A program made the position numbers and the translations under genes. The notes beneath the pieces are model-generated. The model was given only the letters and a program-made list of their open reading frames with translations, was not told the DNA's origin and did no database searches. From assembly GCA_964016885.1 (NCBI GenBank), contig OZ024741.1, positions 29,636,001 through 29,700,000 of the forward strand: DNA of 64,000 bases. Reading direction: 5' to 3'. How positions within the stretch are numbered: position 1 is the stretch's first letter; every line of letters begins with the position of its first letter. This document shows positions 7,990 through 9,647 of the stretch, piece by piece. This stretch comes from Eledone cirrhosa. Taxonomy: Eukaryota.

Positions 7990-7993
<4 letters not shown>

Positions 7994-9647
7994 CAAATAA
8001 CGAAACGAAATTAAATTTCGTTTCGTTTGTAACTCACTTTTGTATGACTGACGCTTAAACAATTAAGTTAAAAATGTACATCCACATATGTATACTGAAA
8101 TACTAGTATGCATATGAATACACACACGTATACATATGTAGATGTACCGATTTTTTCACTGGTCACTTTACTGTGAGTGTCCAGCTATTCTGTATGTAAA
8201 CACACAGACAAACCGGTTTTTAGAGTCATACTGGTTTTTGAGGAAACACCTTTCCTCTATTCTCCAGAAAGCCAGACAAGGAATATTGAACTAGTTTCGT
8301 TGTTGTTACAACTCATCAGCAATATTTACCTATCTCCCGGCCTTCCTAGAGAATCGTAAAAGCACATATCGTTATATGCTTTTTCTATGAAAATTAGTAG
8401 TGGGCAGACTAATTTGCATAGAGTGTGAGTACGTACCGGTTCAACGGAGACGATAAAAACAAATAACGAAACGAAATTAAATTTCGTTTCGTTTGTAACT
8501 CACTTTTGTATGACTGACGCTTAAACAATTAAGTTAAAAATGTACATCCACATATGTATACTGAAATACTAGTATGCATATGAATACACACACGTATACA
8601 TATGTAGATGTGACCAGTGAAAAAATCGGTACATCTACATATGTATACGTGTGTGTATTCATATGCATACTAGTATTTCAGTATACATATGTGGATGTAC
8701 ATTTTTAACTTAATTGTTTAAGCGTCAGTCATACAAAAGTGAGTTACAAACGAAACGAAATTTAATTTCGTTTCGTTATTTGTTTTTATCGTCTCCGTTG
8801 AACCGGTACGTACTCACACTCTATGCAAATTAGTCTGCCCACTACTAATTTTCATAGAAAAAGCATATAACGATATGTGCTTTTACGATTCTCTAGAAAG
8901 GCCGGGAGATAGGTAAATATTGCTGATGAGTTGTAACAACAACGAAACTAATTCAATATTCCTTGTCTGGCTTTCTGAAGAATAGAGGAAAGTTGTTTCC
9001 TCAAAAACCAGTATGACTCTAAAAACCGGTTTGTCTGTGTGTTTACATACAGAATAGCTGGACACTCACAGTAAAGTGACCAGTGAAAAAATGGGTACAT
9101 CTACATATGTATACGTGTGTGTATTCATATGCATACTAGTATTTCAGTATACATATGTGGATGTACATTTTTAACTTAATTGTTTAAGCGTCAGTCATAC
9201 AAAAGTGAGTTACAAACGAAACGAAATTTAATTTCGTTTCGTTATTTGTTTTTATCGTCTCCGTTGAACCGGTACGTACTCACACTCTATGCAAATTAGT
9301 CTGCCCACTACTAATTTTCATAGAAAAAGCATATAACGATATGTGCTTTTACGATTCTCTAGAAAGGCCGGGAGATAGGTAAATATTGCTGATGAGTTGT
9401 AACAACAACGAAACTAGTTCAATATTCCTTGTCTGGCTTTCTGGAGAATAGAGGAAAGGTGTTTCCTCAAAAACCAGTATGACTCTAAAAACCGGTTTGT
9501 CTGTGTGTTTACATACAGAATAGCTGGACACTCACAGTAAAGTGACCAGTGAAAAAATGGGTACATCTACATATGTATACGTGTGTGTATTCATATGCAT
9601 ACTAGTATTTCAGTATACATATGCGGATGTACATTTTTAACTTAATT
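7990..9647. mobile_element. Retrozyme-like non-coding element: ~2.2 tandem 466-bp HHR units (+, 8611-9647) preceded by ~1.3 inverted units (-, 7990-8610)
   Basis: Period 466 (8883 vs 9349), one HHR per full unit, both outer ends in (TA)n, no credible ORF. Confidence 0.85.
9382..9426 (+). ncRNA. Minimal type-I hammerhead ribozyme (other copies: 8916-8960 +, stem III mutated; 8282-8327 -)
   Basis: AATATTG-CTGATGA-GTTGT-aaca-ACAAC-GAAA-CTAG-TT-CAATATT: 7-bp stem I, 5-bp stem II, palindromic stem III, GUU cleavage triplet. Confidence 0.85.

Follow-up and report, generated by a model that had tools for sequence, protein, structure and literature searches.

A high-copy hammerhead retrozyme family in the octopus Eledone cirrhosa with paired insertion ends, very probably mobilised by a Penelope-like element

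Introduction

The 64,000-nucleotide stretch of Eledone cirrhosa DNA analysed here (contig OZ024741.1, positions 29,636,001 to 29,700,000; hereafter the window) contains two tandem arrays, A and B, whose units carry a predicted hammerhead ribozyme. How does such a repeat multiply, from what kind of template, and with whose enzyme? For the non-LTR retrozymes of animals, mobilisation by Penelope-like elements (PLEs) and the use of circular templates have only been proposed, from co-occurrence and from likeness to pLTRs (PMC7229834; 10.64898/2026.07.22.740005). The second of these sources is a vertebrate survey in which molluscs are unsampled, and the words 'octopus' and 'cephalopod' each have zero occurrences in the main text of the first. 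As for PLEs themselves, an inverted arm and a one-sided tail are given as their hallmarks (PMC8557442; PMC3846280), and a PLE protein has been described that in vitro cuts and extends both strands and starts reverse transcription at two internal RNA sites bounding the tail (PMC11167929).

Results

Two homologous non-coding arrays

Both arrays reported in the preliminary description are real, with periods of 466 (A) and 467 nt (B), and each has an inverted arm. Unit positions are numbered from the base after the predicted cleavage site, and P1 and P2 denote two fixed positions at which arms end (neither these fixed ends nor the U6-type element presented below figured in the preliminary description). 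The reference unit used for B includes some bases that were changed at the inversion junction of the window. The arrays are laid out as follows:

7987-8611 (-): family A short arm, 1.34 units, 3' end at P2 (unit position 302)
8610-9647 (+): family A long arm, 2.23 units, 3' end at P1 (unit position 228)
9182-9255 (+): family A tail, P1 to P2, 74 nt with a 13-bp predicted hairpin
42559-43296 (-): family B long arm, 1.58 units
43271-43445 (+): family B short arm, 0.37 unit, 3' end at P1 (247) against (TA)n
42440-42552 (-): end fragment of family C, an about 482-nt tandem family, joined to the B long arm

The A arms are joined head-to-head with a 2-nt overlap; the P2 end of the short arm abuts (TA)n at 7961-7986, and the P1 end of the long arm abuts a short TA run. 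The (TA)n ends claimed for both arrays were found except at the B long arm, where unit position 343 is followed by some 113 nt of family C in place of the announced (TA)n. As regards protein coding, the longest stop-free frames in the A and B units span 57-112 aa, and there was no match to the window's PLE proteins. Once rotated to the cleavage site, the two units are colinear end to end, with 304 of 496 columns identical (61%) and an alignment score of 336; 100 shuffles scored 103 +/- 12, and aligning the reverse strand gave 121. The homology of what had been taken for two divergent members of one family thus stands, but the arrays are rather copies of two young subfamilies, the top copies of which are 98-100% identical.

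Family C (also present at 52582-52900, and at loci L283-L301) is a non-coding tandem family with 1558 first-look candidates. It is related to the 3' region of Hydra-type PLEs, and its insertions are two-armed, with ends about 100 nt apart; neither a canonical hammerhead nor a U6-type element was seen in it. The reading of the B-flanking piece as the 3' end of a Hydra-type element was rejected, this piece being family C. Other repeats in the window include a small two-armed palindrome between TA runs (42175-42426; arm ends about 40 nt apart), a long degenerate tandem array of a GGT-rich 27-nt unit, whose frames are open but of low complexity (36791-39472), and a 285-aa fragment of another retrotransposon-like ORF, with no Pfam match (14236-15093, -).

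Genome-wide, the exact hammerhead pattern was matched at least 23,413 times and the upstream-element pattern 17,257 times, the reversed controls yielding 0 matches in both cases. The best A and B copies are 97-100% identical and spread over many chromosomes, and subfamilies at 72-90% identity are also present. Dispersed copies run from dimers to multimers, and a long array of about 30 units lies near C1:5.74 Mb. We fetched 85 regions, 40 by similarity, 36 mostly ordered by coordinate and 9 because of variant hammerheads. Of 178 full units bounded by consecutive hammerheads, 120 measure 466 nt.

An amphibian-type hammerhead with conserved pairing

The hammerheads of the two arrays have their cores at 8319(-), 8923(+), 9389(+) and 42932(-):

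8266-8337 (-): type I hammerhead, family A, predicted cut after 8289 (GUU)
8905-8976 (+): type I hammerhead, family A, helix III ACTAAT
9371-9442 (+): type I hammerhead, family A, predicted cut after 9419 (GUU)
42884-42946 (-): type I hammerhead, family B, predicted cut after 42902 (GUA)

In the copy at 9371-9442, helix I comprises 7 bp followed by a bulge and an extension, helix II comprises 5 bp, and helix III reads ACUAGU; in B, whose array in the window has a single hammerhead, a U-U mismatch closes the base of helix II. The preliminary description had one ACTAGT hammerhead in each full unit: the type I cores are there, but the copy at 8923 reads ACTAAT, an altered helix III that probably impairs the predicted ribozyme. 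Scores with the Rfam HH9 model were 37 bits for two A copies (E 3.6e-8, for the short stretch searched) and 32.3 bits for the remaining one, while B reached 18.5 bits (E 0.03); all fall below the model's gathering score of 52.

The label 'minimal', of PLE type, that had been attached to these hammerheads is wrong because helix I continues past the UAA/UAU bulge: instead of being short and unextended, it consists of 6-7 bp, the bulge and then a covarying extension. As read from its sequence, the hammerhead is an amphibian-type type I motif, with an extended helix I and a palindromic helix III of 1-2 bp. Indeed, most of the 317 motifs predicted in the fetched regions have a 6-7 bp helix I with a UAA/UAU bulge and further helix, a helix II with an AAYA loop and an ACUAGU helix III, and in most of them the core and the pairing are intact. 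The stems do covary, as had been proposed: in 19 hand-picked diverse copies, 7 of the 16 named pairs changed on both sides, and the covariation score was reached by none of 500 shuffles and was far lower in slid controls. Much of this covariation corresponds to the single A/B split; separate compensatory events comprise a change from G-U to U-G in old B copies and one from U-A to A-U within A.

The predicted circles fold into strongly paired structures (z scores of -8.4 and -9.0 for the A and B units against 25 shuffles), and in the predicted dimer fold the helix III palindromes pair with each other. Since helix III is a short palindrome, cleavage would probably proceed best in dimers; a point against cleavage is that eight of nine Xenopus retrozyme dimers were reported to stay uncleaved in vitro (10.64898/2026.07.22.740005).

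Further hammerhead-like motifs occur in the window at 853-900 (+), 1674-1718 (+), about 7390-7425, about 43880-43920 (-) and 20984-21017 (-), and several such extra motifs adjoin PLE fragments (e.g. 45313-46404). Rfam miRNA matches in the window, which were all under the gathering scores, were dismissed as TA-rich hairpin noise.

Insertions pair one P1 end with one P2 end

Among 90 A arms, 84 end at P1 (219-236) or P2 (294-304), and 79 abut TA repeats. Two-arm A insertions combine P1 with P2 in 31 of 37 cases (21 of the 25 picked by similarity and 10 of the 12 ordered by coordinate); the remaining six have one end elsewhere, and none of the 37 combined P1 with P1 or P2 with P2. Under free choice of ends, 31 mixed pairs out of 31 would have odds of 2^-31. 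This count leaves out L183, which lies at a fetch edge and whose far end, in L182, is P1. In B, all 18 readable two-arm insertions were of the P1+P2 type by hand count, at the homologous sites (about 248 and 310); L174, L185, L194, L205 and the B array of the window, unreadable or chimeric, are not included. In both families P2 sits 62-74 nt downstream of P1. One A insertion (L173:8711-9273) lies in (CAT)n, not (TA)n.

A and B insertions thus display an inverted 5'-truncated arm, a one-sided tail and a microsatellite target, a coding PLE serving as the control. Because their ends, their target and their paired starts match those of PLEs, they carry the footprint of PLE enzymes. The likeness is with the EN+ PLEs (Neptune, Hydra), which are likewise described as inserting as partial tandems with an inverted 5'-truncated arm and a tail at only one end, as targeting (TA)n and as having two internal RT starts. 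Unlike these elements, A and B are without ORF and reach 19 or more units per arm. Their tail of 62-74 nt exceeds the 30-40 nt given in the published accounts of EN+ PLEs but is close to the 56-60 nt of two Neptune families in this genome, and the strict P1+P2 pairing counted here differs from the in vitro results set out in PMC11167929, where the two strands showed no difference in start site. We also considered P2 as a Pol III terminator, since P2 comes after T runs in A and in B. As the main cause of the ends this reading fails: single arms end equally often at P1 and P2, and Neptune ends are not T-rich.

A candidate partner enzyme in the same window

Two PLEs lie downstream of B in the window:

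46857-52119 (-): candidate partner, Neptune-type PLE with an open RT + GIY-YIG frame of 1217 aa (47383-51036)
53340-55838 (-): broken Hydra-type PLE in three frames (RWK, DKT, C-terminal GIY-YIG)

Clades were assigned by the motifs of PMC8557442 (RWK and DKT for Hydra, CX2-5CxxC and CCHH for Neptune), not by tree. Seven frames of the window gave no Pfam match at E 0.001, and the RT part gave a weak RVT_1 match alone; the best homologue of the window RT is named Octopus vulgaris. Both arms of the Neptune element abut (TA)n: the long arm ends at P1, and the inverted arm (51949-52119) at P2, which lies 58 nt beyond. This family yielded 636 first-look candidates, the top 40 copies being 99-100% identical and some passing two units. 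All 11 simple two-arm Neptune copies pair P1 with a P2 located 43-59 nt further on (L266, L273 and L275, complex or at an edge, were left out), and the frame is at least 1215 aa long in 16 of 21 copies, chosen as best matches and hence biased to long, young copies. The window element also contains an asparagine-rich insert, and its pLTR a degenerate hammerhead-like motif. Fragments related to the Hydra-type PLE are very common in the fetched regions.

Several insertions are chimeric. At L247, a 4.5-unit B arm with a P1 end is joined head-to-head, without TA spacer, to a Neptune-type arm with a P2 end, which shows that the two arms can come from different RNAs; the Neptune family concerned has near-identical copies and one open frame of 1177 aa. 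At L196, B is joined to a Hydra-type endonuclease piece; at L262, Neptune is joined to Hydra sequence; and in the window, B joins the Hydra-related family C in a chimera that pairs two upstream-type ends. Chimeric joins could arise by deletion between neighbours in one TA array. No sequence likeness was found between the units and the PLE ends tested. Altogether, we lean slightly towards a Neptune-type family, in preference to a Hydra-type one, as the partner of A and B.

L196 also contains an inverted duplication (6806-9865) whose two arms share the Hydra/B junction and end at the same Hydra site, which suggests that the chimeric insertion was itself transcribed and re-inserted.

Template of the insertions

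Arms longer than one unit make up 66 of 90, with a maximum of 19.5 units. Such arms are out of reach of a cut linear monomer without jumping, given the long distance of P1 and P2 from the ribozyme site. Among 96 near-full units, those of different insertions diverge by 1.84%, whereas units of the same insertion diverge by 0.42%, and those of opposite arms by 0.35%. For fifteen variants private to one insertion, every unit covering the site carries the variant, and 6 of these 15 are present in both arms (L077 was left out of the variant spectra, and B positions 120-239 were masked). Since private variants are fixed and shared across arms, each insertion would derive from one template haplotype, with a frequent one-unit bottleneck. 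A further 14 private variants were found in only some units of an insertion, and haplotypes are mixed within the insertions at L075, L077 and L099; later conversion, multimeric templates or template switches are therefore needed as well. The 5' ends of the arms cluster directly after the cut site, at unit positions 2-22 (14/90, p 3e-4; 4/31, p 0.08, in the coordinate-ordered set alone), with no visible pile near unit position 409, the predicted transcript start.

These data bear on two templates. We regard a circle as the usual one with some confidence. The other is a linear multimer made by reading through already homogeneous arrays and cut in part by the ribozyme, any circles being a side product. 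It would explain why some variants are common to only part of an array, and it agrees with autonomous Neptune arms, which likewise exceed one unit, and with the in vitro work presented in PMC11167929, where uncut RNA was the main substrate. The pile of 5' ends at unit positions 2-22 is in keeping with it too, although this cluster fits linear cut multimers as well as reopening circles. What makes a linear multimer doubtful is that the 15 private variants are fixed over up to 11 units, often in both arms, which points to a frequent one-unit bottleneck, and that single-haplotype arms of 8-19 units exist even though most insertions hold few units.

Two other observations were set aside. A 496-nt contig from four runs of unknown kind corresponds to one unit plus 30 nt, which a DNA tandem explains equally well, and it was not counted. 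Scars of RNA editing were considered because A>G changes are more frequent among private fixed variants (5 of 15) than among singletons (8 of 118; Fisher p 0.007). Editing was not established, however, as the strand test gave 5 A>G against 3 T>C (p 0.36).

A U6-type element inside the units

The units also contain a 12-mer found upstream of host small RNA genes:

9288-9299 (+), 8822-8833 (+) and 8409-8420 (-): U6-type 12-mer TATGCAAATTAG, family A
43011-43022 (-): U6-type 12-mer, family B; TATATA follows 43 nt downstream

Between A and B, TATGCAAATTAG is conserved, and the old subfamilies retain it almost intact; the chance of finding it in one unit is about 1e-4. It is identical to the 12-mer of the U6 locus L062. 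In the host, the element is located 77-79 nt upstream of 5/5 distinct type 3 loci (three U6, RNase MRP and the best U6atac) and was found at none of 30 U1/U2 loci; seven of eight U6atac matches as well as interrupted U6 copies are without it, and these were taken as retrocopies or disrupted. The TATA spacing does not agree, being 43-44 nt in the units against 47-49 nt in host genes, and in A units TATAWA is absent, the TATA being imperfect. The motifs shared by the host U1 and U2 genes (L113-L142) differ from the U6-type element: they are TCAGT, near -56, and a TATA-like box, near -30. It is unusual for Pol II snRNA genes to have such a box.

Judging from these sequence features, we put at about even the chance that the units carry their own working Pol III promoter. 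Only a little less probable to us is that TATGCAAATTAG serves as one arm of an RNA hairpin, or as an octamer-type enhancer of a general kind, the RNA coming from read-through or from Pol II. Indeed, in both predicted folds the 12-mer pairs with a block 12-14 nt downstream; moreover, the TATA is 4-5 nt nearer than in host genes, A is without TATAWA, and Pol III would have to read through four T4-T5 runs per unit. Against this second reading, the 3' arm varies among A, B and the old subfamilies of B but the 5' arm is nearly invariant, and the 12-mer matches the element of all five type 3 genes and is found at none of the 30 U1/U2 loci; besides, host Pol III terminators were seen mostly as T6-T10.

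Hammerhead satellites with an internal promoter are on record, namely newt satellite 2 and the schistosome satellite (as cited in PMC2220036). By these accounts, the promoter of newt satellite 2 is of snRNA type and used by Pol II, whereas the 12-mer described here matches U6, MRP and U6atac and not U1/U2; the schistosome satellite has a Pol III promoter, and the A/B element is a putative promoter.

Discussion

Non-LTR retrozymes are characterised by tandem units a few hundred bases long that each contain a type I hammerhead, as is the case for A and B; an LTR/PBS/PPT build is absent from both, judging from arms that are bare unit multiples against (TA)n. That this non-coding repeat is a retrozyme moved by a PLE, as the preliminary description held, fits every test run, and we consider it very probable. 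The class is already known; what would be new is the paired P1/P2 ends and the U6-type element within the units. The metazoan non-LTR retrozymes described in PMC7229834 (coral, mussel, axolotl) are likewise non-coding tandems with one type I hammerhead per unit, and share with A and B a low GC content, a highly self-paired predicted circle and co-occurrence with PLEs. Helix III of A resembles that described for axolotl Amex1 (a single pair with a palindromic tetraloop as its cap), and the U-U at the base of helix II of B is reminiscent of axolotl Amex2 (PMC7229834). The units, at 466/467 nt, are above the 170-400 nt given for retrozymes in PMC7229834 and within the 51-972 nt of the vertebrate survey (10.64898/2026.07.22.740005). 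Two-armed insertions with fixed P1/P2 ends and an internal U6-type element are not described in the sections of these two sources available to us. The literature searched contained no description of an octopus hammerhead repeat; Dfam, Repbase and preprint supplements were outside that search, and the family may already have been catalogued.

Could the units instead lack a life cycle of their own? One such reading makes them solo or amplified pLTRs of a coding PLE, in line with the resemblance of Xenopus retrozymes to PLE pLTRs (10.64898/2026.07.22.740005), with an insertion build and target identical to those of PLEs, and with the resemblance of family C in the window to a Hydra-type 3' region. 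Units of A and B, however, join exactly head to tail without an ORF start, whereas Neptune tails run into the ORF, and no protein or DNA likeness to the window PLEs was found beyond TA-rich stretches. The preliminary description had named attachment to a PLE frame as the finding that would overturn it: by coordinate comparison in the 85 regions, no arm follows a PLE ORF end in sense, and in the nearest case (L102) the Neptune copy first ends in its own (TA)n. For this sample, the sequences largely refute the pLTR reading, which we consider improbable; a remote pLTR origin is possible. Non-autonomous Chlamys PLEs such as MRC1 offer an instructive comparison: as presented in PMC8557442, they too are non-coding, multicopy, head-to-tail and PLE-moved, but they share 3' sequence with an autonomous family and are mostly without hammerheads, and no such sharing was found for A and B. 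Still less probable is a satellite growing at the DNA level, by unequal exchange or break-induced fold-back, with the hammerhead and the fixed ends as relics. Long arrays do occur, such as the one near C1:5.74 Mb with its roughly 30 units, and the part-array variants suggest later local exchange; yet near-identical insertions are dispersed over many chromosomes with two fixed ends against (TA)n, as are intact PLEs, and ribozyme pairing is conserved across subfamilies that are 61-90% alike.

Taken as a whole, A and B are likely to be a high-copy hammerhead retrozyme copied by a PLE enzyme from one, probably circular, RNA. A tandem copy would be transcribed, possibly from the U6-type element inside each unit; the hammerheads are predicted to cut the transcript into 466/467-nt monomers, which would be closed by a host ligase. 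Then a PLE protein, probably dimeric, would cut both (TA)n strands, as the ends and the in vitro work on another PLE suggest, and one DNA end would prime cDNA synthesis at the internal P1, the other at P2. The arms seen in the DNA range in length from part of one unit to over 19 units, and their 5' ends meet head-to-head with a few-base overlap or filler. Many-unit arms of a single haplotype would represent repeated passes round the circle, often ending near the ribozyme site.

A and B supply abundant genomic footprints and two RNA start sites for the PLE-retrozyme step that has been proposed, and since a young intact candidate enzyme adjoins them, this step is testable in vitro with the existing PLE assay. 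The one-P1-one-P2 rule sharpens the view of how PLEs make inverted ends and a one-sided tail. The U6-type element, if functional, explains how the repeat is transcribed and why insertions of more than one unit are favoured. In its boldest form, which we advance tentatively and think rather unlikely to hold in full, the family would be a self-sufficient RNA-circle parasite with its own U6-type promoter, ribozyme and two-site loading signal, copied by a Neptune dimer, one end at P1 and the other at P2, in up to 20 rolls. If so, the genome would preserve the traces of retrozymes being reverse-transcribed in rolling-circle fashion and of a PLE dimer whose subunits divide the work asymmetrically, with an intact gene for the enzyme in the same window.
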